From the UHGV virus genome UHGV-0848487: DNA of 40,883 nt. One strand, written 5' to 3'. Within the stretch, counting starts at the first letter, position 1. Each line of letters opens with the position of its first letter. This DNA comes from a virus. Made by a program: the position numbers and the translations under genes. This document shows, piece after piece, positions 499 through 37,791 of the stretch. The notes under the pieces are model-generated. The model saw only the letters and a list, made by a program, of their open reading frames with translations. It had not been told where the DNA came from and made no database searches.

Positions 499-915
499 TC
501 ACAGCCTCTTGGTGAATGCAATAAAGTTAATTGACAATGGTCGTTTGGCCCATCCGTTTTCTACAATCAGCGGCCCCAGGCTAACCGATTGAACCTCGGC
601 GCAGATGTCGTTACGAGAAAATGACTTACCTGCTTTGAATGCCGTGTTAAGTAAGTCTGCCATTTTATTGATTGGCGCGCTACCTTTCACCGATGCGTAG
701 TTAATGTCGACCTGATAAACACCCGCGCGTTGTTCCGTGAAGAACAAATCTGCTTGCTCGGTATCCGCCAGTAACATGTAACTTGCCAGATATGGCGTAT
801 CGGTTGACGTCGGCGCGTCGATGTTTTCAAGCGCGACCTTGATGCCGTTGGCGGTTCCGAAGGCTACCAGCGGAACATCGAACGCTTTTGTTAAGTCCTC
901 AAAGTAGCCCATCAT
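499..915 (-). CDS. tail completion / tail terminator-like neck protein (putative)
   Basis: 138 aa ORF immediately upstream of major tail protein in late operon; ATG at 913-915; function by position only. Confidence 0.35.
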   Translation of the reverse strand: MMGYFEDLTKAFDVPLVAFGTANGIKVALENIDAPTSTDTPYLASYMLLADTEQADLFFTEQRAGVYQVDINYASVKGSAPINKMADLLNTAFKAGKSFSRNDICAEVQSVSLGPLIVENGWAKRPLSINFIAFTKRL

Positions 916-1307
916 TTCACCTTGTTGGCTTCTTCGTTAATGAGTTGCTGGAAGCGAGACACATTAGTCCTGACAACCCCGGCTGGCGCCTGTTGCGACC
1001 AACCATACTCCAGCCGTTGCGCATACGGCAGATTATTTGTCAGCGTGAACTCATGCCAGTCAGCGGCTTTCAGCACGAAACTCGTAGCGTTTCCGGTTGC
1101 TGTGTTTCCTGATTTATCCGTAGCGTCCGTAATCCCGGAAGCAGGAGTACCGCCAGATGCCATCCAGTTCATACGAAAGCGGCCCGTGTCTACCGGACTC
1201 GCCTTTATAATAGCGGAAAACAGCTTGATAGACACCTGACGCATCACCTTCTCAGGGTTCTTCTTCGCCTTTTCCACGAACTTAGAGACATCGAGCGCGA
1301 AACTCAT
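912..1307 (-). CDS. head-tail joining / neck protein (putative, HK97 gp10-like by position)
   Basis: 131 aa ORF, 4-nt overlap with neighbours typical of coupled neck genes. Confidence 0.35.
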   Translation of the reverse strand: MSFALDVSKFVEKAKKNPEKVMRQVSIKLFSAIIKASPVDTGRFRMNWMASGGTPASGITDATDKSGNTATGNATSFVLKAADWHEFTLTNNLPYAQRLEYGWSQQAPAGVVRTNVSRFQQLINEEANKVK

Positions 1308-1663
1308 TTTCTCACCTGAATAAAGTACGCCACGACGTCATCGTTAACCATCTTCTTCTCAATAGCTACGATGGACCATTGCTCGCCGCCGAATTGCACC
1401 TTGTCTTCCATCTTCGGAACGACGCTGTAATCGGCTTTAACAATCATGTCGCCAGCCTGAATCGTCGCACCGTTTACCAGTCCCGCGTTTACCGGAACCG
1501 GAACGGCCTTCAACGGCAACACTTCATCCGCAGACCAGACGTACTCACCGAGAACTTCATCCCATACTTTTGAACCAGCGCGAATCAGAGATACCGTGCT
1601 ACCGAATTTGGTTAGCAGGCGCGTACCCACGCCTTGCATACGTTTACTGAAAGCGGTGCTCAT
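1304..1663 (-). CDS. head-tail adaptor / neck protein (putative)
   Basis: ORF track 1304..1744; preferred start ATG 1663 (MSTAFSKRMQ...) preceded by GAGGTG Shine-Dalgarno. Confidence 0.35.
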   Translation of the reverse strand: MSTAFSKRMQGVGTRLLTKFGSTVSLIRAGSKVWDEVLGEYVWSADEVLPLKAVPVPVNAGLVNGATIQAGDMIVKADYSVVPKMEDKVQFGGEQWSIVAIEKKMVNDDVVAYFIQVRK

Positions 1664-1758
1664 TTTAGCACCTCTTGCAGCGTCAAAAGAACACCGTAAC
1701 TGTGCAAGACTACCGCGGTAAGAAAACCAAAAACTACACCACATGTGAACTTATTCAT
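1660..1758 (-). CDS. small hydrophobic peptide (32 aa), hypothetical
   Basis: ATG at 1756-1758 preceded by GGAGG; translates MNKFTCGVVFGFLTAVVLHSYGVLLTLQEVLK; stop overlaps next ATG (ATGA); below the 60-aa ORF-track cutoff. Confidence 0.3.
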   Translation of the reverse strand: MNKFTCGVVFGFLTAVVLHSYGVLLTLQEVLK

Positions 1759-1808
1759 CAAGCGGCCTCCAGTCTCGAAATAACCAGTAGCGCAGAAGGC
1801 GCTGTGCC

Positions 1809-2372
1809 TCATGCGGTTACGGTAGCCGCTTGAGGGTATACGCCACCAAAGTTAGCCCCGGAGCTATCCCGCATAATCTGAACGGCAAACGTCTGGCCTG
1901 CGGTTGGGCTAATAACAACGCGGGACTCGATAGGAATTGTTATGTCGGCGCTTACCAGCTTAGTTGCTGCGGGAGAGCCGTACTGAGCACCGTTTACTAA
2001 AATACGTGATAGCAGGATTGATGTCCCACTAGCGCCAGTACGCCCCGCCTGTAACTTGATGCGAACGGCGTAGTTACCCGCGGTGTTGAATGTAACAAGC
2101 CCTGCGGCATTAATCATTACCGGGTTAGACGCGCCTCCCTGCGCAGCCCCGAAAGTTAACTGTAACGCTGTATCTACTGCGGTAGGCGCTTGCGCCACGG
2201 TTGACGTGGCACGGAGAACTTCTACCTCTTTAACACCGGATGCAGCGTAAAGCATGGAGTCCGCTAACTGGGTATTTACCTCGCGCAACAACTCAGGGGT
2301 TATAGCGCCAGTTGTATTATCGGCGAGATTTGTCCCGATAAGGGTGAACATCTCTGTTTTAGTCTTCGCCAT
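1809..2372 (-). CDS. structural protein, hypothetical (head/neck region)
   Basis: 187 aa ORF, A/G/T-rich, within late operon. Confidence 0.3.
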   Translation of the reverse strand: MAKTKTEMFTLIGTNLADNTTGAITPELLREVNTQLADSMLYAASGVKEVEVLRATSTVAQAPTAVDTALQLTFGAAQGGASNPVMINAAGLVTFNTAGNYAVRIKLQAGRTGASGTSILLSRILVNGAQYGSPAATKLVSADITIPIESRVVISPTAGQTFAVQIMRDSSGANFGGVYPQAATVTA

Positions 2373-2374
2373 TT

Positions 2375-2887
2375 TTAACCCCGGTACACGTTAAACGAGA
2401 AGCCATTGTTAAGACCACCACACAGTAACGGGCGTAATGCGTCGTCCGCAGCGGTAATAGCGGTTGTGGCGCCACTGTTGCCGTTGTTGAAGTATGTCAC
2501 TGTCACAGCACCCTCAACACGCTCAGTCTGCACGGAACGCCCATCTGAGTTAGCCCGAACATCAGTACCCGCACCATACGTAACCGCAGCGATTACTTGT
2601 GCCCGGATTAACTGCGACGGGATAACATTATCCGCTACGGTGAAGCCGTTTAGTGTTGTTCCTGTACGTGGGTACGCCAGAGACTGTTCAGCGGATACGC
2701 GACGCCCGCACATCTGAGGTTCTGCAAGCCCGACATAAGTAGCGCCGTTGCGCAAGGCCACCTCTGCTGCGGTATCGTCTTCTGGTAGCTCAAGACCATA
2801 ATTAGCCGCTAACGCGCGGGCGTCGGCCAGACTAACGTAACTGTCGGCATCAGGTACTATCGACCCATCTTCCACGATTAGCGGCAT
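2375..2887 (-). CDS. head-tail connector / head completion protein (gp6-like, putative)
   Basis: 170 aa; N-terminal SYVSLADARALAANYGLELPEDD resembles head-tail connector family N-termini; position after capsid gene. Confidence 0.4.
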   Translation of the reverse strand: MPLIVEDGSIVPDADSYVSLADARALAANYGLELPEDDTAAEVALRNGATYVGLAEPQMCGRRVSAEQSLAYPRTGTTLNGFTVADNVIPSQLIRAQVIAAVTYGAGTDVRANSDGRSVQTERVEGAVTVTYFNNGNSGATTAITAADDALRPLLCGGLNNGFSFNVYRG

Positions 2888-2890
2888 AAA

Positions 2891-3058
2891 TTATTCCTCT
2901 GATTTCGCCCGGCGCTGGCGGCGTGGTGTCTCTTCTTTAGCCGATTCTACCACGGTGCCTTCTGGTGCGAAACGAGCATCTACCACACGGAACCCCTGAC
3001 GGTTATACTCGCGCTTCTGCTCGATGGTAATTGGCATTGGTACGTATTTAATTTCCAC
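2891..3058 (-). CDS. small hypothetical protein (55 aa)
   Basis: GTG start at 3056-3058 preceded by GGAGA; stop TAA overlaps RBS of next gene; not in ORF track (under 60 aa). Confidence 0.3.
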   Translation of the reverse strand: MEIKYVPMPITIEQKREYNRQGFRVVDARFAPEGTVVESAKEETPRRQRRAKSEE

Positions 3059-3074
3059 TTTAATTTCTCCTAGT

Positions 3075-3100
3075 AAAAAAGGGCCGAAGCCCCTTTGTTT
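3075..3100 (-). terminator. intrinsic terminator-like hairpin after major capsid gene
   Basis: Minus strand reads GGGGC-ttcg-GCCC followed by TTTTTT directly after capsid stop codon. Confidence 0.4.
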
Positions 3101-3115
3101 TTACTACTAACCGTG

Positions 3116-4120
3116 TTACCGGTCTGCGTCGGCGATTGCCAGAGTACCGAGGGTGTGCTTGTTCTCGGCAACAGCTTTGCCCCAGTTAGTCGCGGTGAAC
3201 AGTTCTGCGTCCAGCGGAGATTTACCGCCGTTGGTAACGTCCCAGCTGTAGCCTTTCAGTTTCAGGCCGAAGCTGTAGTCCGCCTGCCAGGTGGTCTGGA
3301 TGCGGGTGTTACCGTTGCTGGTGTCAATGTTGCTGATAATGTCAGAAGCATTATCAACGATGATGCCGTTCGCAACTACGGACAGAACCTTAGTCTTGTT
3401 CGGGCTGCCAGCTTCGTACGGAACCTTAGTCTTGTTCGGGCTGCCAGCTTCGTACAGCGCAGGGATGTCGGAAATTACGTAACGCTTGCCGAGAACATCG
3501 ACAACCATAACGTTGCCAGCAACGAACAACTGGTTTGCGTTGGTCAGCGCTTTGTCCACCAGAGTGTGGTAGGCCGCGCCGGTCATGATGTCAGTGACCA
3601 ACAACTGAGACTGGTCGCCGAATTTAGCGTGGCTGTTGTTCAGCACGTTCAGGGACAAGCCAGCGGTCGCGGATACATCGTTAACCAGTGCAGTCTGACC
3701 GGATACCGCGGCAACGGCGGCACCAACAGCGGTGTTAAGCTGGTCAGCTAACAGTGCGTCAGAGAACCCTTCGGAGATAGCACGAATCGCGCTCGCCGGG
3801 TCTTCGTTCAGCCAGGTCATTTGCGCAGGCTCGAACAGTACCGGTCCGAAGCCGCCAGCGACTTTAACGCCTACATGCTCGCCCTGAGTCAGCGCGGTAG
3901 CTGCCTGAGACGCGATAGTGGCGTAACGGTCAACGCGGCGTTTAGCGGAGGCAATCTGGTTAAAGAAAGACTCACGGGAGAAGTCACCGCGCCATGAAGC
4001 GGTAGACAGTACAATTGCGCCACCGGAGGCTGCGTTAAACTGGTCAGTTTTCTGGCCAAGCAGTTCGATAGTGGTACCGACGATATCGTCGTTATAAACC
4101 TTCATATCTGACAGAGACAT
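3116..4120 (-). CDS. major capsid protein
   Basis: 334 aa ORF following scaffold-like gene; followed by terminator; position in head module; contains 36-bp in-frame tandem duplication. Confidence 0.6.
   Translation of the reverse strand: MSLSDMKVYNDDIVGTTIELLGQKTDQFNAASGGAIVLSTASWRGDFSRESFFNQIASAKRRVDRYATIASQAATALTQGEHVGVKVAGGFGPVLFEPAQMTWLNEDPASAIRAISEGFSDALLADQLNTAVGAAVAAVSGQTALVNDVSATAGLSLNVLNNSHAKFGDQSQLLVTDIMTGAAYHTLVDKALTNANQLFVAGNVMVVDVLGKRYVISDIPALYEAGSPNKTKVPYEAGSPNKTKVLSVVANGIIVDNASDIISNIDTSNGNTRIQTTWQADYSFGLKLKGYSWDVTNGGKSPLDAELFTATNWGKAVAENKHTLGTLAIADADR
3384..3455. repeat. 36-bp tandem direct duplication (2 copies, 35/36 identical) inside capsid gene
   Basis: gaaccttagtcttgttcgggctgccagcttcgtacg repeated head-to-tail; encodes duplicated peptide YEAGSPNKTKVP. 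Confidence 0.9.
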
Positions 4121-4126
4121 ATTCTG

Positions 4127-4753
4127 TTATCCTCGTTTGCCGTATTTGGCGTTAAGTTTTTGCTGGATTACGTCCGCACCACCGGCCCCGCCAGTAGAAT
4201 TTTTGTTACCGGAAGCCCCGCCGCCGGTTGCTGCATCTGCTTTAATCAGATGCGAAAATGCTTTGTGCTCACGCAGATACTTTTTAAATTGCTCTGCGTC
4301 GGTGGTGATGACATTACCATCTGCACCTGTGAACTTGGTCACAACGTCATCGCCGTCAAATTCGGTCTTGACCATCATAGCGATAATATCCGCTGCGCTC
4401 TCATCAATCAACATTCCAGACAACTGGCTGATAACTGATTTACGTTCCGCGCCGAGGATACGCTCAGCCATTTTGCTAATCTTACCGTCTTTCTCGGCGA
4501 GTACTGGCTCATACTGACTGCGCAACGTTTTCTCGAATGCCTCAAGTTCGCCGTTCTGTTTTGCGCGTTCCTGTTCGGCTTTCAGCTTCGCATCTGCGGC
4601 TTCTTTCGCGGCAGCGGCGGCAGCTTTCTTTTCAGACAAGAGCTTCTCGTTGTTAGCTTTAAGACCGGATACCAGCGCGTCAACTTCTTCTTTGGTAAAC
4701 GTGGTCTTAGTCTCTTGTTGTTCGATAGTTTCGTCTTTCACTTCTTCGCTCAT
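4127..4753 (-). CDS. capsid scaffolding protein
   Basis: Acidic, Ala/Lys/Glu-rich coiled-coil protein directly upstream of capsid gene; preferred start ATG 4753 (MSEEVKDET) after GGGGA. Confidence 0.55.
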   Translation of the reverse strand: MSEEVKDETIEQQETKTTFTKEEVDALVSGLKANNEKLLSEKKAAAAAAKEAADAKLKAEQERAKQNGELEAFEKTLRSQYEPVLAEKDGKISKMAERILGAERKSVISQLSGMLIDESAADIIAMMVKTEFDGDDVVTKFTGADGNVITTDAEQFKKYLREHKAFSHLIKADAATGGGASGNKNSTGGAGGADVIQQKLNAKYGKRG

Positions 4754-4775
4754 CAGTATGTCCCCTGGACGTTGG

Positions 4776-4794
4776 AATCCGGGCCACCCGGATT
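4776..4794 (-). promoter_or_regulatory. perfect 8-bp stem / 3-nt loop hairpin in scaffold 5' leader
   Basis: AATCCGGG-cca-CCCGGATT about 20 nt upstream of scaffold ATG; no U-tract. Confidence 0.35.
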
Positions 4795-4832
4795 TACATG
4801 TCAAGAATAAATTATTCCAACATACAAGGCAA

Positions 4833-5096
4833 CTATTCCAGAATATTCCTCACGTAATCCTGCAACATGAACACTTTAAGTCTCAGTTGCCGTACACATT
4901 CTGCGTTCTGGACGTCAATAGCTAAATCCTCGTCCGCGTCGTTACTTGGCAGTGCCAGTTTGCACGGCGGCTGCATCATCGTCGTATCCGGGGATGGAAT
5001 TGGCGTTTGCGACGGCGCGGGACTTGAGTTGCACGCGCTCAGGGTCAAAAGTGCACACGCTGCGGCCAGGCGTTTTAATGTACTTAACGACTTCAC
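4833..5096 (-). CDS. Rz1: o-spanin (Rz1-like outer membrane lipoprotein)
   Basis: GTG start inside Rz in another frame; signal peptide with lipobox LSAC (MKSLSTLKRLAAACALLTLSAC); Pro-rich mature region; overlaps and extends beyond Rz 3' end. Confidence 0.7.
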   Translation of the reverse strand: MKSLSTLKRLAAACALLTLSACNSSPAPSQTPIPSPDTTMMQPPCKLALPSNDADEDLAIDVQNAECVRQLRLKVFMLQDYVRNILE

Positions 5097-5328
5097 GGGT
5101 GATTACCTCTGATTTCGTCTTGCCTTCGTTATCAGCGGCGGCGGCCTTCGATTCATCCTGCTGCTGCCGTTGTGTTTTCTTAGCTAACTCAGCCTGTGCT
5201 TTCTGCTGTTGCTGCGAAACGAGATTCTCCCGGCCTCCGTTCCAGCCGCTGCGATACTGGTAGATGCCGTGTGCGTAAGCCAGGATGATGAAACATGCCC
5301 CCGCTACGACAGTTGCTTTAAGATTCAT
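4942..5328 (-). CDS. Rz: i-spanin (Rz-like)
   Basis: 128 aa; N-terminal transmembrane segment, Gln/Ala/Lys-rich coiled-coil, overlapping lipoprotein gene in alternate frame; AAAGGGGAAAC RBS. Confidence 0.7.
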   Translation of the reverse strand: MNLKATVVAGACFIILAYAHGIYQYRSGWNGGRENLVSQQQQKAQAELAKKTQRQQQDESKAAAADNEGKTKSEVITREVVKYIKTPGRSVCTFDPERVQLKSRAVANANSIPGYDDDAAAVQTGTAK

Positions 5329-5352
5329 GTTTCCCCTTTCTCGATAAGTAAA

Positions 5353-5372
5353 GCCCCGCCTTAAAGCGGGGC
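5353..5372 (-). terminator. hairpin GCCCCGC-loop-GCGGGGC followed by TTTAC, upstream of Rz
   Basis: Stem-loop read on minus strand; near-identical element in opposite orientation at 16780..16802. Confidence 0.4.
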
Positions 5373-5648
5373 GCTAGTCCTTATCATTTAAACATAGAAA
5401 CGGCGTAATCTCAGTAAACCAGTTACTTTTTACACAAGCAATAGAGTATGGCCCTTCCGAACGCGTCAGCGTAACTACACTCAGGACTTACGTCCCGCTC
5501 CGTTACCTGCCCGCGCCGCGGTCGCTTGTTCATACTTCACAAGCTCAGGTGGAGCTTAGCACATTTTTGGTGAAAAGTCAACTATTCGAATAGTTTATTC
5601 CAACATTTACAATTGAGTGGAATGACTGGAATAATCACAGGCACTAAA

Positions 5649-5666
5649 AAGCCCCTTTCGGGGCTT
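5649..5666. terminator. intrinsic terminator hairpin (bidirectional-looking)
   Basis: AAGCCCC-tttc-GGGGCTT flanked by A5 on plus side (U-tract on minus strand) just downstream of the 153-aa gene. Confidence 0.6.
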
Positions 5667-5670
5667 CAGT

Positions 5671-6132
5671 TTATTCTTGCTTAGTAACCTTCGCTGCTTT
5701 ACTTACGGCCTCTATACCATCGGCATCAGTGACTTTAACGAAGTATTCACCAACTGCGTTAACCGTCAGAGACAGAGCCTCTTCCGGGGCGTTTACCACT
5801 TCCTTCCCGTCTTTGTACCAGGTCAGCGCATATGGTGCTTTGCCCGCCTTAACTTCGACAGCGATATTTGCGCTGCCGTCTGCCAGTTCAGCGTCCTGCG
5901 GTTGTACGGAGAAATACACATCACCAGCATCCGCCAGGTACTGAATCTCATAAAGCATACCTGCCGCTGGCAGCGCAATACCGGTCTTGTCCGCAAACGG
6001 CATATCGTCCACTGGTGTTCCGAGTACACTTTCGTCTTCAATAAACACCACGTTCTCGCCAGAGCCAGACACGCGGGCGTACTGGACTACGCGACGAGAC
6101 GGTACGTCAGTTACTTTGAAAAAGCCCATCAT
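5671..6132 (-). CDS. Ig-like domain head protein (decoration-like, putative)
   Basis: 153 aa; C-terminal segment YALTWYKDGKEV...GEYFVKVTDADG resembles Ig-like fold signature; ATGA overlap with upstream MuF-like gene. Confidence 0.3.
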   Translation of the reverse strand: MMGFFKVTDVPSRRVVQYARVSGSGENVVFIEDESVLGTPVDDMPFADKTGIALPAAGMLYEIQYLADAGDVYFSVQPQDAELADGSANIAVEVKAGKAPYALTWYKDGKEVVNAPEEALSLTVNAVGEYFVKVTDADGIEAVSKAAKVTKQE

Positions 6133-7208
6133 TATTCCCCTTTCAGATAATCAGCAACACGTTTATCGAGTTCCGCCATCTGCTTAAGCGTGAGCGGATT
6201 CCCGAAACCATCTACAGATATTACGCGAAACTCTTCCGGCGATATACCGCTGTTACGGAAAATCTTACCTCGCACCGGGCCGAGCGCCTGGTCCTGAAAC
6301 CACGCCGGTTGTTGTTTAAGGAACTCGTAGTAAGTGGTGTCTACGCTTACCTGAGTGCCACCTTCCGCGCCTTTAGCCGCGCGTTTTGCGCCTTTATCGA
6401 GGAAGTCGAACTCGGAACTGATTACCGGAGCCGTGCACGACCGGCAGTTCGGATGGGCAGGGGGCATCGGCCCCTTACCAATTTCCCACGTCATCCCGTC
6501 TCTGACCCTGCAAATCGTACTGGTGCGGCTGTCAAGCGTTGACACCCACTCGTACTTCTCGATGATGTCGTCGTTCTGGCGGTACGTCTCGTTACGGGCT
6601 TCGTTGGACACGTGAGACAGCGCGGTGCGGATGACGGTAGCGGCGTTACGCTCAGAGATGTCAGCCAGCCCACCGGCGCCTACTACATTCTTAACAATCT
6701 GCCGTGTTGTTTGACCTTGTACAAAGCCCATCTTAACGCCGGTTACAAGACGTGCTACTTCCGTTTCACCCCAACCTGACATCAGTTTAGTGAAATCAAC
6801 TGGCTTGCCACTCAATGATAATGGCTGAAACTCAGCAGCGGCCCACACCTGTTCGGCGGTGGGCGTAACAAATTCCGCATCTACGTTGGCGGTCAGGGTC
6901 TTTACGTTCCACTCAGCTTCATACACCGCCAGTTCCTTGAGGTCTTCTGCCAGCTTTGTTTGCCAGTCACCAGTAAGTCCTGTCAGTACTTCTTCAAGGT
7001 CACGTAACAGTTTATTCAGTCGCGCAGTGCTGCGACCGTCGTCGCCGAATAGCAGCACCTGCCGTTTGATTTCGTCCCGCATCTCCTTAATGAACGGCGC
7101 GAGGTCTTTCACCTCACCGGATGCGGTGCGTTGCAGCCATATTTGGTGGCTGATTAGTGATGTAAGTAAGCTCATAGATAAACCCTGTGGCGCTAAAGTT
7201 AATAGCAT
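6132..7208 (-). CDS. head morphogenesis protein (Mu F-like / SPP1 gp7-like minor head protein)
   Basis: 358 aa located directly after portal; conserved-looking C-terminal region with HPNCRSCTAPV motif. Confidence 0.65.
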   Translation of the reverse strand: MLLTLAPQGLSMSLLTSLISHQIWLQRTASGEVKDLAPFIKEMRDEIKRQVLLFGDDGRSTARLNKLLRDLEEVLTGLTGDWQTKLAEDLKELAVYEAEWNVKTLTANVDAEFVTPTAEQVWAAAEFQPLSLSGKPVDFTKLMSGWGETEVARLVTGVKMGFVQGQTTRQIVKNVVGAGGLADISERNAATVIRTALSHVSNEARNETYRQNDDIIEKYEWVSTLDSRTSTICRVRDGMTWEIGKGPMPPAHPNCRSCTAPVISSEFDFLDKGAKRAAKGAEGGTQVSVDTTYYEFLKQQPAWFQDQALGPVRGKIFRNSGISPEEFRVISVDGFGNPLTLKQMAELDKRVADYLKGE

Positions 7209-16472: not shown

Positions 16473-16506
16473 AACCCTCACTCCTCTGTCTCGTTCCGAT
16501 AAGTGA

Positions 16507-16535
16507 ATAGTATCCTATTATGTTGGGGCGTGCAA
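16507..16535 (-). promoter_or_regulatory. sigma70-like promoter TTGCAC-N17-TACTAT (minus strand) overlapping GAATAG palindrome
   Basis: Minus strand TTGCACgccccaacataataggaTACTATtcactta, about 25 nt upstream of the 16472 gene. Confidence 0.5.
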
Positions 16536-17459: not shown

Positions 17460-19745
17460 ATGTCCGATGTAATTTTATCCTACTCGTGGTCCCGTCGCAA
17501 CGCGCGGGCGGAGAAAAAGGATATAAACGTCAGAACCACACATACGGCAACACTGGATGACCTGAAAGAGTTAATTCAGCCGCTTGATGCTGTTCGTGAC
17601 GGGATTAACCCTAAGACCGCGCCAGGTTATATCACTGCCGCGTGCGATTCTATACACAGCACCGTAAAAGACCCGGAAACAGGTGACTTTAAGCAGGCCC
17701 GTAAAGGCTTCTTTTATCGCTGTGACGCGTCTGTAAGCAAATCGTCGCTGGCGTATCTGGACTTCGACAGCGCAACGCCGGAAGAGTACCAGGAAGCGGT
17801 GCGCCTGGTTAAACGCAGCCGCCTGGCTATGTGCCTCTACACCACGGCATCCCATACCGATGGGTCACCGCGCTTTCGCGTCGTCATGCCGCTGGGCCGC
17901 CCGGTAGAAGGCGGTGACATCATCCGTGTTCGTCATGGATTGCTGGAGCACTTCTTCAAAGGTATGGGTGCGGACCGCAGCGGGTTCACTCTGTCTCAGC
18001 CGATGTACCTGCCGCCGGTTGGCTCTACTGTTATCTGGTCGCGCCGCAACGACCTGATTGACCCGGACGAGTTACTGGAAGGCATCCCCGCCGTTGACGT
18101 TAGCAGCGCATCGGATTACCAGATACCGAAAGAACTGCGAACAGCGTTTACCGATGCGTTTGAAGCACTGGCGTTCGAGTACGGCGGTATTATGACCCCG
18201 CGCGGCCTTAAGATGCCCGCTACGCCGGAACACGCCGAGAACTACAGCGACCCGACACCGCGCCCGGATGACTTCCTGCTGTGCTTCCCGCGCGAGGGAT
18301 ATGAAGCGCCTAACGTAACCATGATTCACGACACCGACATTACGGCGACCGAGGGCATGTCACCGAAAGAGGTGTGGAAGTATGCGTGCGATGCAACCGG
18401 GCTGCCGTTCAGTGAAGTCGCAGAGGCCATCGGTTGGGGTGCACGTGAATCTGTTTCTTGCAGCCTGGACGACCTTGAAGACGACGAGGACTCAGAGGAG
18501 GACGAGTTACCGGAACCGGTAAAGGCTGATTTCGTCGTTGAAGGGTACATGCCGTCGGATTGCATATGGGATATCGTCGGGGAGTCCGGTACGTATAAAT
18601 CCTTCTATACGCTGGGGATGATGTACCTGAGCGCCACCGGATACCGGTTTGCGGGTGCTGACACCCAGCGTTGCCACCATTTCTATATCGACGGTGAAGG
18701 CGGCGCAGCTACCCGCACCCGTATCGATGCGCTCGCGGCTAAATATGGCGAGGAAGGTAAAGATTATGTACATGTTATAGACATGGGTGAAATACTCGGT
18801 ATGCGAGAGGATAAAAAACTTACAGCACTCATCCGTATGATGCGTGAAACAGCAGGAGAGGAACCGATCGGTATGATTGCGTTCGATACCCTCAACCAGA
18901 CGCTGGCCCTGACGATTGATAAGTTTGATGAGAACAGTTCATCAACTGCAATCGGCATGGGTAAAGTCATCGCTATCCTTAAAAAAGCGCGTGACGCGAC
19001 TAAAGCTGCGGTAGGCGTTGTACACCATACACCGAAGGGCGGAAAGAAAGCCCGAGGTAGTGGTGCGCTGTACGCTGGCGTCGATGTGGAGCTGACAATC
19101 GAACGCGCGACAGACCGTCAGATAAATGTATACCACTCTAAATTTAAGCATGGGCCGCAACAGAAGACGGTTGGTATGGTGCTTGAGTCGGTACAGTTCC
19201 GCGAAGCCCCGCCACCGAAAGAATACCGCGCGGTTGAGTTCCTCGGTAGCACAGAGGAATACGGCACAACCGTTAACCTCGACCTGCCTGAGCCGCACAA
19301 AGCGCTTGTGCTTATGCCGTGGGGCTTCGAACCGTTCAAGACCGACGAGGAGAAAGAGCGGGAAGAAGGACTGACTAAGGAAGGTAAAGAAAACGTACGT
19401 AGGACCATGGAGAACGCCGTCAACAGTTCGGAAGCCACGATACTGGCGGCGTTTGAACTGGCGGAAGGAACCTACAACGGCAACGAAGGTATCACGGTAG
19501 CCGCGGCAAATAAGCTCGCACAGTCTGACCCCAACGCGAAGGCGTTCAACTCCAAAGAAGTCATAGAACGCGGAAAGATTAAGAAAATGGTTGAGGCGGG
19601 GTATCTTGTACCTGGTACGGACGAAAACAATCAGATAATCCCGGGCCGTTACAGATTGAATACCCGAATAACGGACAACAAGATTCCGAAGACAATATAC
19701 GAACCGAATGAAATGCTGACAGTGACAGAGGAGGATTTGGAATAG
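17460..19745 (+). CDS. replication protein: primase-like N-terminal region fused to RecA-like/AAA ATPase (helicase-type) domain
   Basis: 761 aa; LAYLDFD acidic motif in N-terminal half; deviant Walker A GESGTYKS, Walker B-like IGMIAFDTLNQ, HHTPKGG motif in C-terminal half. Confidence 0.55.
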   Translation: MSDVILSYSWSRRNARAEKKDINVRTTHTATLDDLKELIQPLDAVRDGINPKTAPGYITAACDSIHSTVKDPETGDFKQARKGFFYRCDASVSKSSLAYLDFDSATPEEYQEAVRLVKRSRLAMCLYTTASHTDGSPRFRVVMPLGRPVEGGDIIRVRHGLLEHFFKGMGADRSGFTLSQPMYLPPVGSTVIWSRRNDLIDPDELLEGIPAVDVSSASDYQIPKELRTAFTDAFEALAFEYGGIMTPRGLKMPATPEHAENYSDPTPRPDDFLLCFPREGYEAPNVTMIHDTDITATEGMSPKEVWKYACDATGLPFSEVAEAIGWGARESVSCSLDDLEDDEDSEEDELPEPVKADFVVEGYMPSDCIWDIVGESGTYKSFYTLGMMYLSATGYRFAGADTQRCHHFYIDGEGGAATRTRIDALAAKYGEEGKDYVHVIDMGEILGMREDKKLTALIRMMRETAGEEPIGMIAFDTLNQTLALTIDKFDENSSSTAIGMGKVIAILKKARDATKAAVGVVHHTPKGGKKARGSGALYAGVDVELTIERATDRQINVYHSKFKHGPQQKTVGMVLESVQFREAPPPKEYRAVEFLGSTEEYGTTVNLDLPEPHKALVLMPWGFEPFKTDEEKEREEGLTKEGKENVRRTMENAVNSSEATILAAFELAEGTYNGNEGITVAAANKLAQSDPNAKAFNSKEVIERGKIKKMVEAGYLVPGTDENNQIIPGRYRLNTRITDNKIPKTIYEPNEMLTVTEEDLE

Positions 19746-19754
19746 GTAAAAATA

Positions 19755-19773
19755 AAGGGGCGTTAAGCCCCTT
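19755..19773 (-). terminator. hairpin AAGGGGC-gttaa-GCCCCTT, U-tract on minus strand
   Basis: Stop codon of the XRE-like gene lies in the loop; located 10 nt after the replication gene stop on the plus strand. Confidence 0.5.
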
Positions 19774-19978
19774 CACCCAACGCCAGCCACTTGGCATCTA
19801 CTTGCAGCACTTCCGCCAGTTTAAACAGCGTCGCTGGGCGGACGTCCTGAGTTACCCCAAGTGCCAGCTGGTTAATCGCGCCTTGGGAAACACCGGCCAG
19901 GACAGCCAGATGGCGCTGGGAGATACCGAGTTCTTTACGGCGTTGCTCTACACGGATACCTAGTTCAGATGGTTGCAT
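19763..19978 (-). CDS. XRE-family (Cro/CI-type) HTH transcriptional regulator
   Basis: 71 aa; LGISQRHLAVLAGVSQGAINQL helix-turn-helix; AAGGAG RBS; antisense to the replication module. Confidence 0.8.
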   Translation of the reverse strand: MQPSELGIRVEQRRKELGISQRHLAVLAGVSQGAINQLALGVTQDVRPATLFKLAEVLQVDAKWLALGEGA

Positions 19979-19998: not shown

Positions 19999-20027
19999 TT
20001 GATATGTGAATAGTACCATATTAATTA
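19999..20027 (+). promoter_or_regulatory. candidate promoter TTGATA-N17-TAATTA overlapping the divergent XRE promoter (-10 TACTAT on minus strand at 20010..20015)
   Basis: Contains GTGAATAGTA operator-like motif; face-to-face overlapping promoters. Confidence 0.4.
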
Positions 20028-20042: not shown

Positions 20043-20071
20043 TTGACAAGTGAATAGTTCGCTATTATAGT
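20043..20071 (+). promoter_or_regulatory. strong sigma70-like promoter TTGACA-N17-TATAGT
   Basis: Consensus -35, 17-nt spacer containing GTGAATAGTtcgCTATTA palindrome, -10 TATAGT; 30 nt upstream of the 20103 gene. Confidence 0.6.
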
Positions 20072-20102
20072 TAGCCCATACCAAACGAGAGGAGAATAAA
20101 TA

Positions 20103-20612
20103 ATGTTAGAGAAATTCTTAGTATTACTGGAACGTTTCGTAGTTGCGCATGAACTGATTGCTGCGAACAGCGCGAAACGACCGATGCCGTCAACTGAGTG
20201 TGTAGGTGAAATGCTTGTAGATGTATCGGTTACCGGAGAGGTGCTTGGAGTCGACCCAGGCACTGGCGTCGGGAAAGAAATCCCGGTCGAAGGCGAGGGC
20301 CTCGTTGACACTAAACCTGCGGAAGAAGAGAAGCCGAAACGCAAGCCGCGTAAAGCTAAAGTAGAGGAGCCAACGCCAGAGCCGGAAGAAGAGAAAGAAG
20401 AAGTCGATTACCAGTCTCTGCGCGACCAGATTCAGGCTATCGACGATGCGATTAACGAAGGCCCAAGCGATGCCGCGTGCGACGATTCTGACGAACTGCT
20501 GGAAGAGTTTACCGGTAAGAAGATGAAGATTGCAGCGATTAAAGACGAAGACCTGGCTGAGTATCTGGAGCGCCTGACAGCAATCAAGAACAAGTATTTC
20601 GAAGAAGAATAA
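20103..20612 (+). CDS. highly acidic hypothetical protein
   Basis: 169 aa, Glu/Asp-rich with short basic patch KPKRKPRKAK; GAGGAG RBS; first gene after strong promoter. Confidence 0.55.
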   Translation: MLEKFLVLLERFVVAHELIAANSAKRPMPSTECVGEMLVDVSVTGEVLGVDPGTGVGKEIPVEGEGLVDTKPAEEEKPKRKPRKAKVEEPTPEPEEEKEEVDYQSLRDQIQAIDDAINEGPSDAACDDSDELLEEFTGKKMKIAAIKDEDLAEYLERLTAIKNKYFEEE

Positions 20613-20619
20613 CTATCCC

Positions 20620-20638
20620 GCGGCCTTCGGGCCGCTTT
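20620..20638 (+). terminator. hairpin GCGGCC-ttcg-GGCCGC followed by TTT
   Basis: Directly after acidic protein gene. Confidence 0.45.
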
Positions 20639-20655
20639 AACTGAGGGTCGGGATT

Positions 20656-20928
20656 ATGATTTACCAACTATACCGCGCCGTTGACCGGCGGGATACCACA
20701 GAGGCGCTATGGTTATTGCGTGCGCCGTCCGGTGCGCACCAGATGGAAGAGATGGCGTACTTAGGCAAAGTACCGCTGTCTAAAGATATAGGCCGTCACG
20801 TGTCGCAGATTAAGCGCACGACATTCGCCAAGCCTGACTTTTATGTCTTTGAGTCGATGTACAGCTGGGCTATGCACTGCGACCATAAGACACGACATTT
20901 AATTGACCAGTGGGAGAGCAGGGTATGA
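20656..20928 (+). CDS. hypothetical protein (90 aa)
   Basis: ORF track; RBS GAGGG. Confidence 0.45.
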   Translation: MIYQLYRAVDRRDTTEALWLLRAPSGAHQMEEMAYLGKVPLSKDIGRHVSQIKRTTFAKPDFYVFESMYSWAMHCDHKTRHLIDQWESRV

Positions 20929-21182
20929 ATTGGGTTAGTGTAAACGAAGCATTGCCGGAGTCAAAAGATGATTCTGTTTTAGTTTGCTCAGTAGATGGTG
21001 GTAAATATGACGATAACGGGTTCCCGGAAGGTGGGATCGATTTTGTACATATACAGGACTATTTCGACGACATTACGGCTGGGCTGGATGAGAACGGAAA
21101 TCAGCTATATACGAAACGGTATATCGAGATGGGCATAACTCACTGGATGTATTTACCGGAACTGCCGGAGGGCACTAAATGA
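20925..21182 (+). CDS. DUF551-like protein
   Basis: Preferred ATG 20925 (MNWVSV) overlapping upstream stop; C-terminal ITHWMYLPELPEG. Confidence 0.5.
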   Translation: MNWVSVNEALPESKDDSVLVCSVDGGKYDDNGFPEGGIDFVHIQDYFDDITAGLDENGNQLYTKRYIEMGITHWMYLPELPEGTK

Positions 21183-22432
21183 TGATCCTAAAAGAGCGCG
21201 GCGGCAATAACGATGTACACGCCTTACTATCACCGTCAGGCGCTAAAAAGTGGCTAACCTGCCCGGCTTCTCTGGCCTGTGAAAAAGATATTCCTAACAC
21301 GTCCGGTAAAGCCGCGGTATTAGGCACAGCTATGCACACCATAGCCGAGATGCATCTTAACCAGTACATCAAAGGTGCTGCGCTGCCGTTAGAGCGTGAA
21401 GTCGGCGCTTACGTGCTGGATGAAGGTAAAGGCCAGATTAAGGCGCTAATCAGCCCAATGAAAGGCGCGGTACTGGTTACGGCGGACATGATTGAGCAGG
21501 TGCGCAAGTACACCGACTACTGCAAAGCGATTATCGACGTAGCGACTTACGACAAGCTGGAAATGCGAGTCAATCTTACTGAGGTATTGCATCCTGGGTA
21601 TGAAGGTGTCGAGACGTTCGGAACGGCTGACCTCGTTGCTGTCCAGGAACTGGCGAACACCGACGAGCACATGCTCATTATTGGCGACCTTAAAACTGGA
21701 CGGCATCGTGTTGAAGCGAAAGAAAACAAGCAGCTTATGCTTTACGCTCTCGGTGTTTATCGCCGACTCAAGAGACGTTATAACATCACAGTAGTGCGCC
21801 TGGTCATCTTCCAGCCGTACGCGGGGGGTGCGTCAGAGTGGGACATCTCGGTCGAAGGTCTGGAACTGTTCGCTAAGTTCGCACAGAAACGGGCACTGTT
21901 AGCGCTTGATGCTTATTTCCGTGGAAAGAAGAACCTGAAAGCGTCGGACTTTAAACCGTCGGTCGATGGTTGCCAGTGGTGCCGGTTCTCTGAACAGTGT
22001 GCCGCGCGTACAAAGACGGTTAATTCTGTACTGGCGGAAGAACTTGAAGACGACTTTGTGCTGGAACTGACGACGGAGCAACTCGTAGTTGAGTATGAGA
22101 AGTTGCCGCTGTTACGCCAGCACATCGACAAGGTTGAGAAAGCGATGTCCGCCGCATTGCATTCCGGTAAGAAAGTTCCTGGGTACAAGCTGGTTGAAGG
22201 TAAGATGGGCAACCGTGCGTGGAAAGATGCCGATGCGATTGAAGTGTCACACGGCGACATTCTCAAAAAAGAGGTATTGATGACCCCTACGGAGGCAGCA
22301 AAAGTTCTTTCGGCGGATGAGATGGCAGCGCTTGAGCCGTTTATTACCCGTAAGCCGGGCGCACCATGTGTCGCAACGGCAGACGACAAACGTCCTGAGT
22401 GGAATCAGGTTAGTGAAGAAGATTTGGAATAA
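21179..22432 (+). CDS. PD-(D/E)XK exonuclease, Cas4/RecB-like with Cys cluster
   Basis: GTADLVAV ... IIGDLKTG nuclease motifs; C-terminal CQWCRFSEQC; 417 aa. Confidence 0.6.
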   Translation: MMILKERGGNNDVHALLSPSGAKKWLTCPASLACEKDIPNTSGKAAVLGTAMHTIAEMHLNQYIKGAALPLEREVGAYVLDEGKGQIKALISPMKGAVLVTADMIEQVRKYTDYCKAIIDVATYDKLEMRVNLTEVLHPGYEGVETFGTADLVAVQELANTDEHMLIIGDLKTGRHRVEAKENKQLMLYALGVYRRLKRRYNITVVRLVIFQPYAGGASEWDISVEGLELFAKFAQKRALLALDAYFRGKKNLKASDFKPSVDGCQWCRFSEQCAARTKTVNSVLAEELEDDFVLELTTEQLVVEYEKLPLLRQHIDKVEKAMSAALHSGKKVPGYKLVEGKMGNRAWKDADAIEVSHGDILKKEVLMTPTEAAKVLSADEMAALEPFITRKPGAPCVATADDKRPEWNQVSEEDLE

Positions 22433-22436
22433 AGTG

Positions 22437-22465
22437 TTGACACCTGAATAGTTAGCTATTATAGT
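22437..22465 (+). promoter_or_regulatory. sigma70-like promoter TTGACA-N17-TATAGT
   Basis: Near-duplicate of promoter at 20043..20071 including TGAATAGTtagCTATTA palindrome. Confidence 0.6.
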
Positions 22466-22518: not shown

Positions 22519-23145
22519 ATGGGTATTAAACTGAATCTGCGTAAAGTAAACACTGCATGGGTTAACGTATTCGAACGCGAAAAAGACCGTGAAAACGATG
22601 ATGGCTCAATCACTAAAGGCCAGTACAGCGCGACTATCATCCTGCCGTCTGACCACGCACAAATCGACGCGCTCTACGACACCGTTTACGCTGTGGTTGA
22701 AGAAGCGTTGGGCGCAGCTGCCGCTGAGAAGTGGATGAAGTCCAACTACGGCGAAGGTAAGCACATGGATAAATGTGCGATTAAAGACATTGCCGAGCGC
22801 GACAATCCGTTTGAAGACTTCCCGGAAGGCTTCTACTTCAAGGCGAAGGCACAGAAACAGCCACTGATTGTAACCTCTAAAAAAGGCGAGACTCAGGTAG
22901 AACAGGACTTCAATGTAGACGGCGAACAGATTGAAGGTGAACAGGTTTACAGCGGCTGCGTCGCTAACGTAAGCGTTGAAATCTGGTTCAGTCAGAAATA
23001 TAAAGTCCTCGGCGTTAACCTGCTGGCGATTAAATACATTGGCGAAGGCAAAGCGTTTGGCGGTTCTAAAGTCGCTGCCAGCGTAAATGACCTGGAAGAC
23101 GACGAAGAAGATGAAGCACCGCGCCGCGAGCGTCGTCGTCGCTAA
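22519..23145 (+). CDS. ssDNA-binding protein-like (T7 gp2.5-type, putative)
   Basis: 208 aa with acidic C-terminal tail DLEDDEEDEA; position immediately upstream of DNA polymerase. Confidence 0.4.
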   Translation: MGIKLNLRKVNTAWVNVFEREKDRENDDGSITKGQYSATIILPSDHAQIDALYDTVYAVVEEALGAAAAEKWMKSNYGEGKHMDKCAIKDIAERDNPFEDFPEGFYFKAKAQKQPLIVTSKKGETQVEQDFNVDGEQIEGEQVYSGCVANVSVEIWFSQKYKVLGVNLLAIKYIGEGKAFGGSKVAASVNDLEDDEEDEAPRRERRRR

Positions 23146-23204: not shown

Positions 23205-25385
23205 ATGAGTTACCTGTTCTTAGACTTTGAAACATTCTCCGAAGCCGATTTGAAGAAAGTCGGCTCCTACGCTTACGCCGAACATCCAACCACCGAAGTT
23301 CTAATCTGCACATATGCTTTTGACGACGAGCCTGTGCAGGTATGGGATTGCACCAACGGCAGCGACATACCGGGCGATTTGCACCGCGCGTTACGCCGTC
23401 TGGTGAAACCAAACAGCCGTATTAAGATGGTGTGGCACAACGGCTCAATGTTCGACAGGCCCATCATGAAGCACTGCTGGGGTTTTGATATTCCCGTAAG
23501 CAACACCATTGATACGATGATTTGGGCGTTTCGTCACGCGCTGCCGGGTTCACTCGACGCATTGTGCGAAGTGCTTGGCGTGTCTGCAGACAACGCGAAA
23601 GACAAACGAGGCAAAGCGCTTATTCAGCGTTTCTCTAAACCGACGCCGAAGAACTACAAAATTCGCCGCTACACTGCTGAAACGCACCCGGATGAGTGGG
23701 CGCTGTTCATCAAGTACGCCGTTAGCGACATCACCGCGATGCGTGAAGTGTTCCATAAGTTGCCGCGTTGGGGTAACTCCGAGTTCGAAGACCGTGTACT
23801 GGAACTGGACCAGTTAATTAACGACCGCGGGTTTAAGGTCGACGTTGCGCTGGCGGAAGCCGCAATTGAAGCTGTGGAGAAACACAAGGCACAGTTACAG
23901 GAAGAAGCCCAACGTAAATACGGCGGCTCGCTTACAGGTAAGGACTTCCTGCCGATTCTGCGTGAACTGGCGCCTGCGCATCGCATCCACAACGCGCAGA
24001 AGTCTACGCTTAACGACCTGCTTGCTGACGATGATTTACCGGACGACGCCCGCACGATTATAGAAATGCGCCTCGGGGCGGCATCCACTGCGTCAACGAA
24101 ATATAACCCGCTGCTGTTAGGCCGCTCGTCTGACGACCGCCGTCGCGGTTGCATCCAGTATGGTGGAGCTAAACGTACGTTACGATTTGCGGGTAAAGGC
24201 TTCCAGCCGCAGAACCTGGCGCGTGGGTACTATCACGATGATGAACTGGATAAAGGTATTTCAGCATTACTTAAGGGCCGAGCACATCGCCGTTTTGATG
24301 TAGCCAAGCTAACGGCATCTACGGTTCGCAGCTGCATTATCCCGGAAGCCGGACATAAGTTTGTCGTCGCCGACTACTCGAACGTTGAAGGCCGCGGTTT
24401 GGCGTGGCTGGCTGGCGAAGAAACCGCGCTTGATACGTTCCGTGCCGGGCTGGATATTTACTGCGTAACCGCAGGCAAGATGTTCGGCATGGAGCCGGAT
24501 TACATTAAGAAAGAACGTAAAGACTTACGCCAGATTGGTAAGGCATGCGAACTTGGACTTGGCTACGCGGGTGGTGTCGGCGCATTCGTACAGTTCGCCA
24601 AGAACCTCAGCCTTGACCTTGTTGATATGGCAAAAACAATGGACGGGACTTTCCCCGACCACATCTGGGCTGCTACCGCACGTGGATATGAGTGGGCGCG
24701 TATTCAGGAAGCCAAGCGACCACCACGTCCAGGTGAAAATGATGACCGACCATCTTATATTCTTGATAAGAAAGTGTGGCGTACCTGCGACGCTATCAAG
24801 CGTATGTGGCGTGAGTCACACCCGGAAACAGTAGCTTTCTGGCGGGATATTGAAGACGCAGCTATGGCAGCTATCCGCAATCCGGGCAAAGAGTTCACCG
24901 CAGGGCCGCGGGGAGTTAAGTTTTCGCGCAACGTAGAAACGGACAACAACGGCAACAAAGTCGCCGGTTGGTGGTTGCGGATGACGTTGCCGTCGGGCCG
25001 CGTTATGTCTTATCCGGGCGTCGGGTTGAGCGTGTCGAAAGAGACAGACGAAGATGGAAAGGTGTCCACTAACGTCCGCATCAAATACCAGGGGGAGAAC
25101 CAGTTAACCCGTCAGTGGGGCTTCCAGTACACCTACTCTGGTAAACTGGTGGAAAACTGCACTCAGGCTCTGTGCCGTGATTTGCTGGCTAATGCGCTGC
25201 TGAACGTAGAGGCAAACGGCTACCCGATTGTTCTTCACGTACACGATGAGATTATCTGCGAGACACCAGATTTACCGGAATACAATGTAGATGAACTGGA
25301 GAAATTAATGTGTGCGTTGCCTGAGTGGGCAGAAGGCTTCCCTCTTGTAGCAGAAGGTGCGGAGATGAAGCGTTATGCCAAGTAA
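23205..25385 (+). CDS. DNA polymerase, family A with 3'-5' exonuclease domain
   Basis: Exo I motif LFLDFETFS; motif A ADYSNVEGR; motif B RQIGKACELGLGYAGG; motif C HVHDEII. Confidence 0.85.
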   Translation: MSYLFLDFETFSEADLKKVGSYAYAEHPTTEVLICTYAFDDEPVQVWDCTNGSDIPGDLHRALRRLVKPNSRIKMVWHNGSMFDRPIMKHCWGFDIPVSNTIDTMIWAFRHALPGSLDALCEVLGVSADNAKDKRGKALIQRFSKPTPKNYKIRRYTAETHPDEWALFIKYAVSDITAMREVFHKLPRWGNSEFEDRVLELDQLINDRGFKVDVALAEAAIEAVEKHKAQLQEEAQRKYGGSLTGKDFLPILRELAPAHRIHNAQKSTLNDLLADDDLPDDARTIIEMRLGAASTASTKYNPLLLGRSSDDRRRGCIQYGGAKRTLRFAGKGFQPQNLARGYYHDDELDKGISALLKGRAHRRFDVAKLTASTVRSCIIPEAGHKFVVADYSNVEGRGLAWLAGEETALDTFRAGLDIYCVTAGKMFGMEPDYIKKERKDLRQIGKACELGLGYAGGVGAFVQFAKNLSLDLVDMAKTMDGTFPDHIWAATARGYEWARIQEAKRPPRPGENDDRPSYILDKKVWRTCDAIKRMWRESHPETVAFWRDIEDAAMAAIRNPGKEFTAGPRGVKFSRNVETDNNGNKVAGWWLRMTLPSGRVMSYPGVGLSVSKETDEDGKVSTNVRIKYQGENQLTRQWGFQYTYSGKLVENCTQALCRDLLANALLNVEANGYPIVLHVHDEIICETPDLPEYNVDELEKLMCALPEWAEGFPLVAEGAEMKRYAK

Positions 25386-25598: not shown

Positions 25599-25875
25599 TG
25601 AGGGGCGCGTGCAGAAATACGCAAAAGAGCGATTCGAGGCCCTGGGAGGCCTCGTACGCAAATTGTCGTACGAAAATAGAGCGGGCGCCCCCGACCTGCT
25701 GGTAATTCTCCCTGGTGGCATCATCTGGTTCGTCGAGGTTAAGAAAGACGAAAACACGAAGCCGGACCCGCACCAGTTACGAGAGCACGAGCGGATGCGT
25801 AAACGTGGTGCAAATGTTTTTGTCGTTGGTTCGTTTAAACAGGTTGACGACCTAATAGCGGGCTATTATAGTTAA
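25588..25875 (+). CDS. VRR-NUC domain nuclease
   Basis: GAPDLLVILPGGIIWFVEVKKDENTKPDPHQ matches VRR-NUC PD-(D/E)XK core; RBS GGGAGGGG. Confidence 0.7.
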   Translation: MSTPEGRVQKYAKERFEALGGLVRKLSYENRAGAPDLLVILPGGIIWFVEVKKDENTKPDPHQLREHERMRKRGANVFVVGSFKQVDDLIAGYYS

Positions 25876-37732: not shown

Positions 37733-37761
37733 TTGCACACCCCAATATAATAGGGTACTAT
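37733..37761 (+). promoter_or_regulatory. sigma70-like promoter TTGCAC-N17-TACTAT driving plus-strand accessory island
   Basis: TTGCACaccccaatataatagggTACTATtcactta; near-identical to the minus-strand early promoters at 15213..15241 and 16507..16535. Confidence 0.55.
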
Positions 37762-37791
37762 TCACTTACACCAACAATGAAGGGGTTTAAA

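Follow-up and report, generated by a model that had tools for sequence, protein, structure and literature searches.

The DNA analyzed here is UHGV virus genome UHGV-0848487 (40,883 nucleotides, nt; the whole stretch is hereafter called the window), and the subject of this analysis is the gene at positions 20103–20612, which encodes a highly acidic protein of 169 amino acids (aa). Judged by its conserved position, this gene is a core syntenic member of a replication/recombination cassette found in several phage lineages, not an accessory gene. The reading that we prefer, at a probability of roughly 0.4, is that the protein is an abundant, non-enzymatic accessory factor of a T7-like replication and recombination machinery and acts through electrostatic contacts. 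We favor an accessory role because of the core status of the gene, its synteny, and the signs of a charged-tail network in the module. A preliminary description of the gene had proposed a DNA mimic or anti-restriction factor and had set this against the role of a replication accessory factor; the evidence now leans toward the latter, which is not proven, and we consider it more likely than an anti-restriction DNA mimic.

The region is 94–98% identical in DNA to E. coli Kagunavirus phages, vB_EcoS_fTaEco01/03 and LF7074P1 among them, and the window genome classifies as a Kagunavirus (Guernseyvirinae). Hundreds of near-identical copies of the gene occur in Kagunavirus and Jerseyvirus genomes. 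Among phage records, the protein itself matched 486 and its Dhillonvirus homologue (P0368) 155, so that the family, with ∼640 records, tracks the module approximately one to one (651 records for the helicase-primase and 644 for the protein that binds single-stranded DNA, SSB). In every locus that extended far enough, a gene for a DUF2800 nuclease lay 0–3 small open reading frames (ORFs) downstream of the gene. The loci with this order (Schulenburg, Tsm2, 37P2, SP-038, vB_STM-ZS [ZS], 5sent1, TheodorHerzl, and HK578) cover Kagunavirus, Jerseyvirus, Cornellvirus (as far as its partial record extends), Serratia phage Tsm2, Klebsiella phage 37P2, and Dhillonvirus; two divergent metagenomic contigs also show the nuclease order, and a third ends at the gene. 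A family A DNA polymerase (PolA) is encoded downstream as well, usually with a gp2.5-like SSB between nuclease and polymerase. This gp2.5-like annealase follows in all loci except those of the L007/L010 lineage, where an unrelated SSB is encoded elsewhere. The gene lies mid-operon in an uncultured ∼40-kb lineage with a P22-like tailspike, after a methylase gene and directly 5′ of the DUF2800 nuclease and PolA genes, and in Kosakonia phage Kc259 a 180-aa protein in the same slot matches the C-terminal domain (hhalign probability 83%). Between Kagunavirus and Jerseyvirus, identity is ∼88–100% in the N-terminal helix and ∼90% in the C-terminal domain; the corresponding values are 57% for the helicase-primase, 73% for the nuclease, 77% for the SSB, and 85% for PolA.

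The gene is an ATG-initiated ORF of 169 codons on the plus strand, with its stop codon at 20610–20612. Its product contains 30 Glu and 13 Asp (43 acidic residues, or 25.4%) and 22 Lys/Arg, for a net charge of −21 and an isoelectric point (pI) of 4.42, and its Asp plus Glu fraction ranks top among the 61 non-overlapping ORFs of the window. One basic cluster, KPKRKPRKAK, occupies residues 77–86 (nt 20331–20360). The Glu/Asp-rich composition and the single short basic patch reported in the preliminary description were therefore both borne out. Within the N-terminal coding region, third codon positions vary while the peptide stays fixed (the Ser23 codon toggles between AGC and TCC), which establishes 20103–20612 as a real coding frame and means that the N-terminus is conserved as protein, not as DNA. 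A replication origin or other DNA element inside the gene was considered and rejected, as the window ORF contains no iterons and the N-terminal conservation is at the protein level. The feature annotated as “repeat_region” in Dhillonvirus jat is a short 47-nt repeat where the variable linker of the protein is encoded. Similar charge density was seen in the DUF551 ORF (20910–21182) and in one 67-aa ORF. The DUF551 protein has a pI of 4.05 and a net charge of −13 over 90 aa and, by composition alone, rivals the 169-aa protein as a candidate for an “acidic early protein.”

The protein belongs to a family that is catalogued, very common, and uncharacterized, with no link to a characterized family. 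It matched PHROG 3127, a family of unknown function, over its full length (E = 6.6e-67; residues 1–169 against positions 1–177 of the 178-position profile). A Pfam search gave no match, an NCBIfam search gave no family and one sub-threshold match to a TonB linker, sequence and profile searches of the PDB found no relative, and a Foldseek search of the PDB with the predicted model returned nothing with E < 3. The BFVD structure search recovered family members only, the best being UniProt Q9T1Z8 from Salmonella phage MB78 (72% identical). An exhaustive profile search of 1.84 billion representatives yielded only 95 clusters; every one consists of short phage proteins, with no fusion to a known domain. 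When 22 distant family members were scanned against Pfam, the outcome was noise only, and a search for loci related to P0238 found none. More distant relatives of the C-terminal domain belong to other PHROGs of unknown function.

The architecture of the family is distinctive. When relatives from Jerseyvirus, Cornellvirus, Serratia phage Tsm2, Klebsiella phage 37P2, and metagenomes are aligned, three modules stand out: a near-invariant N-terminal peptide (consensus MLxKFLxLLERFVVAHELIAANS), a Pro/Glu/Lys-rich linker that is hypervariable and in which a basic cluster is nearly always present, and a conserved acidic C-terminal domain. AlphaFold2 was run twice on different alignments, and the predicted architectures agreed: an N-terminal helix at residues 2–23/25 (predicted local distance difference test, pLDDT, ∼80–88), disorder at ∼27–98 (pLDDT < 50), and three helices at 103–119, 123–137, and 148–166 (pLDDT 86–95). 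Approximately 90 of the 169 residues (2–25 and 100–169) are thus predicted to be ordered. The N-terminal helix, 23 residues long, is almost wholly hydrophobic and near-invariant. In a 43-sequence, multi-lineage alignment, L8, R11, V13, E17, and R107 were invariant and A15, I110, D123, L158, and Y165 nearly so. Position-specific acidic residues occur at 121, 123, 124, 127, 131, 148, 150, and 167. Full-length members carry net charges of −9 to −23, mostly within the last ∼65 residues; the charge density of the C-terminal domain of the window protein is −0.19 per residue. Some metagenomic relatives (P0204, P0209, and P0210) have two tandem C-terminal domains, and in others of a set that also includes P0250 and P0260 the conserved N-terminal helix is joined to an unrelated C-terminal part. 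These arrangements suggest modularity, or else artifacts of assembly or frameshifting.

In the window, the gene reads as a monocistronic unit composed of promoter, Shine-Dalgarno sequence, gene, and weak terminator (Table 1). The consensus promoter at 20043 that the preliminary description pointed out matches 11 of 12 consensus positions; the exact pattern TTGACA-N17-TATAGT occurs twice in the 40.9-kb window, at 20043 and as a near-identical twin ahead of the SSB gene at 22437, and was matched in none of 100 shuffles. That the gene is the first after its promoter is correct for the window and not universal, given that a small ORF intervenes between promoter and homologue in Schulenburg, Tsm2, vB_STM-ZS, L016, and L018, and that the homologues in L007 and L010 lie mid-operon. 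The claim that the gene has its own terminator was upheld by comparison with relatives. The T-run of the hairpin at 20620–20641 is merely TTT, which is why a simple terminator scan missed it. At this site Jerseyvirus, Tsm2, 37P2, HK578/TheodorHerzl, L017, L018, L007, and L010 also have a GC hairpin with a U-run behind it, with stems that differ in sequence and with 5–6 U in Tsm2, HK578, L018, L007, and L010; a hairpin lies directly 3′ of the gene in nine of the 10 phages or contigs inspected, vB_STM-ZS being the one without. Because hairpin and U-run keep the same place in relatives, we regard this element as conserved and probably a leaky intrinsic terminator or attenuator. The promoter scan of the window found no consensus promoter between 20640 and the nuclease gene. 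A monocistronic unit with a weak terminator predicts that the acidic protein would exceed the downstream enzymes in amount. These signals also suggest the early timing and strong expression that the preliminary description had assumed; the only transcriptome paper on a Kagunavirus, K1B4, gives no temporal class for the homologue.

Charged C-termini are found on other proteins of the module. The helicase-primase (19728–19745) and the DUF2800 nuclease (22415–22432) both end in EEDLE, and they are the only ORFs in the window with a C-terminus of the form [DE][DE]DL... The two tails co-vary by lineage (TDDDLKD and TDEDLKN, respectively, in HK578; YDDLE and DVDLA in Tsm2), which suggests that they share a docking site. 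In the tail of the window SSB (23080–23145), an acidic block precedes an Arg-rich end, APRRERRRR, the opposite of the purely acidic tail that SSBs usually have. The same combination of acidic block and basic end is present in the unrelated PHROG 9002 SSB of the ∼40-kb lineage, with a Lys-rich version in Kc259. SSB tails with such basic ends (APRRERRRR, RQRRQRRAR, and KKKAPARK; loci beyond the window L007:3295–3849, L010:1389–1976, and L020:4749–5456) occur in two unrelated SSB families that accompany the acidic-protein family. In T7, the acidic tails of gp2.5 have been implicated in interaction with the polymerase and the primase-helicase and compete with single-stranded DNA (PMC5686142). The likeness to the tails of T7 gp2.5, T7 gp4, and the Enc34 SSB lies in electrostatic, DNA-competitive docking in a T7-like replisome, and the helicase-primase and nuclease of this module have acidic tails that match each other. 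Instead of a short tail on an enzyme, the acidic element of the 169-aa protein is a three-helix domain, folded and carried by a long spacer.

A positional analogue exists in the Casjensviridae. Their ORF3/gp04 (Enc34 ORF3 and gp04 of the Chi-like phage Siskin) sits in this slot too, where it opens the rightward unit and lies between the regulator and the DUF2800 nuclease, and like the 169-aa protein it has an N-terminal helix, a Lys-rich basic linker, and a small acidic helical domain. The gp04 gene is likewise followed by a terminator, marked as such by the Siskin annotators. The Casjensviridae primase, ORF3/gp04, DUF2800 nuclease, and SSB all end in [DE]4-V (L021, Enc34, 568–6420; L022, Siskin, 1002–6885). 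As ORF3 is not detectably homologous to the 169-aa protein, the comparison is one of analogy only. Some GenBank records label ORF3/gp04 “RecT protein,” without visible basis.

From the gene, its composition and architecture, its conservation and synteny, and the flanking signals, we infer the following for the abundance, timing, partners, and mechanism of the protein. The cassette is ordered as helicase-primase and helix-turn-helix (HTH) regulator, divergent promoter region, acidic-protein gene, hairpin, small ORFs, DUF2800 nuclease, gp2.5-like SSB, and family A polymerase, and the acidic protein would be made in stoichiometric amounts, in excess over the downstream enzymes. Its N-terminal helix may serve as an anchor, through self-association or through a conserved partner onto which it docks. 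The acidic head would make contact with surfaces of replication proteins that are basic, DNA-binding, or rich in Arg; the candidates are the SSB tail at its Arg-rich end, the polymerase, and the nuclease. Such contacts would be electrostatic and DNA-competitive, like those that acidic tails make in the T7 replisome, and the protein would serve as an adaptor or buffer among replication and recombination proteins.

Several points weigh against this reading. The partners named above are predicted candidates, and core status is not itself proof of a replication role. The fold is a generic helical bundle without an informative structural match. The C-terminus of the protein is KYFEEE, with a DEDL motif only internally, and does not share the EEDLE motif of the helicase-primase and nuclease. 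Homology to the Casjensviridae ORF3 family was unsupported (hhalign probability 6–11%). Finally, Gam and gp5.9 are also encoded in recombination modules, so the synteny accommodates a host-directed inhibitor as well.

Such an inhibitor is the alternative that survives best, although we consider it unlikely. The protein would then be an acidic, DNA-mimic-like inhibitor of new fold directed at a host DNA-processing protein, most plausibly RecBCD, and an analogue of lambda Gam or T7 gp5.9 that shields linear phage DNA and leaves recombination to the phage nuclease and annealase. Lambda Gam and gp5.9 are likewise small, helical, and acidic. The acidity of the C-terminal domain, kept family-wide, suits this role, as does an expression design that favors abundance. 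The charge densities of known DNA mimics span a range that includes −0.19 per residue, and the bulk value of the C-terminal domain is compatible with mimicry, not diagnostic of it. In its position the gene heads an exonuclease and annealase unit, as lambda gam lies beside bet and exo; T7 gene 5.9 adjoins the gene 6 exonuclease. P2 OLD, which is triggered by the RecBCD inhibitors Gam and gp5.9, restricts Dhillonviruses (bioRxiv 10.64898/2026.07.10.737580); phages with this protein family are OLD-sensitive, with Kagunaviruses varying in their sensitivity to Old. In those parts of the module that were examined, no known RecBCD inhibitor was seen; the scan did not extend over the rest of the window. 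The protein, however, has no detectable likeness in sequence or structure to Gam, gp5.9, Abc2, or any solved mimic, nearly half of it is predicted to be disordered and carries the basic cluster, and no loss of the family is seen, an unusual trait in an inhibitor that a phage could do without. The genetics of HK578 also lean away from this role: the mutations of the three OLD-escape mutants lie in gp43, in gp46 (the helicase-primase), and in the promoter of gp45, all neighbors of the homologue, gp44, and outside it. One of these mutants carries a frameshift in gp43, the homologue of the window ORF at 20656–20928 (30% identity), and this 90-aa ORF may therefore be the recombination or RecBCD-related factor of the operon.

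A bolder proposal combines two possibilities, namely that the protein is the hub of a “charge-reversed” SSB network, or that it is a DNA-competitive RecBCD inhibitor of new fold that lies behind the OLD sensitivity of small siphoviruses; we hold this joint proposal to be doubtful. As a hub, the abundant acidic protein, with its invariant helix for docking, would tether or buffer its partners in a network made up of the Arg-rich SSB tail and the acidic DL tails on the helicase-primase and nuclease.

A transcription factor coupled to its own terminator, serving as an antiterminator or timing device for read-through into the nuclease genes, would account for the pairing of gene and hairpin in nine of 10 loci inspected, even where the gene is mid-operon, and for the stretch from 20640 to the nuclease gene in which no consensus promoter was found; the basic cluster in its disordered segment could bind RNA. 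We consider this quite improbable. N-type antiterminators are not strongly acidic, unlike this protein as a whole, which also has no nucleic-acid-binding domain, and a transcription-unit boundary is the simpler explanation of the hairpin.

The anti-restriction role put forward in the preliminary description, with the protein as an Ocr/ArdA-type DNA mimic directed against restriction-modification (RM) enzymes of type I (or others), now appears very improbable. The protein does resemble T7 Ocr (gp0.3) and ArdA in being small, acidic, promoter-proximal (and thus probably early), and plausibly stoichiometric in its action, and since acidity is conserved family-wide, an electrostatic, DNA-competitive mode of action is still reasonable. 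It differs from them in that only about half of it is folded, in its basic cluster, in its location in a core replication cassette instead of an accessory region, and in the sensitivity of its phages to restriction. Kagunaviruses are reported to be highly sensitive to RM systems, and small siphoviruses, including Dhillonvirus, mostly so (PMC11990801). The Kagunavirus Bas74 encodes a 79%-identical homologue, found in the search of phage records, and the RM sensitivity of Kagunaviruses including Bas74 argues against an Ocr/ArdA-like function. Neither in sequence nor in fold is the protein similar to Ocr or ArdA, and these two, like Gam, gp5.9, and Arn, were absent from the listed matches of the sequence and fold searches. 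One relative bears a separate restriction-alleviation gene of the Lar type.

Least credible is a late or virion-associated protein, as in the GenBank label “13.88 kDa late protein” and in one genome paper that counts it among structural proteins (PMC9787291), given the location in a replication module far from the morphogenesis genes, the host-type consensus promoter, and the fact that we found no accessible experimental basis for the label. The label traces to the 72%-identical Q9T1Z8 of phage MB78, and this homology accounts for the unusual product name that many GenBank records have taken over. Members of PHROG 3127, Q9T1Z8 among them, are true homologues of the 169-aa protein, none has an established function, and “late protein” is a legacy name without verification.

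Hundreds of siphoviruses of Salmonella, Escherichia, Klebsiella, and Serratia have this family as a core gene of unknown function, and many of them are therapy candidates or models, including Bas14 and Bas70–76 of BASEL and HK578. The gene is located in the operon region by which the retron type IX and OLD defenses are triggered, and deciding between service to the replisome and the disarming of RecBCD would account in part for these defense phenotypes. Depending on the outcome, the gain would be a replisome accessory protein not described before or a DNA-competitive inhibitor with a new fold. The protein is in this sense a well-defined experimental target, with nothing here to surprise specialists.

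Table 1. Features of the acidic-protein locus and of the neighboring replication module (window coordinates).
Feature	Position	Strand	Basis or remark
Replicative helicase-primase, 761 aa	17460–19745	+	C-terminus ...TEEDLE
Cro/CI-type HTH regulator, 71 aa	19763–19978	−	Divergently transcribed
Second GAATAGT-N3-(C/A)TATTA palindrome copy, divergent intergenic region	20008–20023	+	Repeat family D1
Sigma-70-type promoter TTGACA-N17-TATAGT	20043–20071	+	11/12 consensus positions match; spacer palindrome GAATAGTTCGCTATTA at 20052–20067
Shine-Dalgarno sequence AGGAG	20090–20094	+	8 nt 5′ of ATG, direct reading
Acidic-protein gene, PHROG 3127 member	20103–20612	+	ORF, composition, profile match
N-terminal hydrophobic helix MLEKFLVLLERFVVAHELIAANSAK, residues 1–25	20103–20177	+	Alignment and AlphaFold
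Predicted disordered Pro/Glu/Lys-rich variable linker, residues 26–99	20178–20399	+	Includes basic cluster 20331–20360
Acidic three-helix C-terminal domain (predicted), residues 100–169	20400–20609	+	Net charge −13 over 70 residues
GC hairpin GCGGCC-TTCG-GGCCGC, then TTTAAC	20620–20641	+	Stem-loop 20620–20635, −13.5 kcal/mol
90-aa ORF, PHROG 4965	20656–20928	+	Homologue of HK578 gp43
DUF551 protein	20910–21182	+	
DUF2800 PD-(D/E)XK nuclease, 417 aa	21179–22432	+	C-terminus ...SEEDLE
gp2.5/Enc34-type SSB and annealing protein	22519–23145	+	Tail ...NDLEDDEEDEAPRRERRRR; own promoter 22437
Family A DNA polymerase (PolA)	23205–25385	+	

DUF2800 proteins such as the one encoded downstream are AdnA/RecB-like nucleases and are dispensable in Bas14 (bioRxiv 10.64898/2026.07.14.737667). 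For the HTH gene that adjoins the helicase-primase gene in Dhillonvirus (L015, phage jat, 770–1099; L014, HK578, 4169–4597), one record has the label “DNA recombination nuclease inhibitor gamma” and another has “transposase.” Pfam gave only weak HTH and sigma-70 region 4 signals for it, and both labels therefore look like annotation drift.

The palindrome within the promoter spacer belongs to a family of repeats. Fourteen copies of GAATAGT-N3-CTATTA (≤2 mismatches) were present in the window, against 0.43 expected, including those at 20052–20067, 22446–22461, 25853–25868, 16505–16520, 37748–37763 (minus strand), and 20008–20023. The palindrome fills the spacer of three promoters of the form TTGAC(A/G)-N17-TATAGT, at 20043, 22437, and 25844, one at the start of each of three units in the replication module, and a second class of sites has no −35 element. 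These palindromes are probably the operator of the HTH regulator encoded at 19763–19978.

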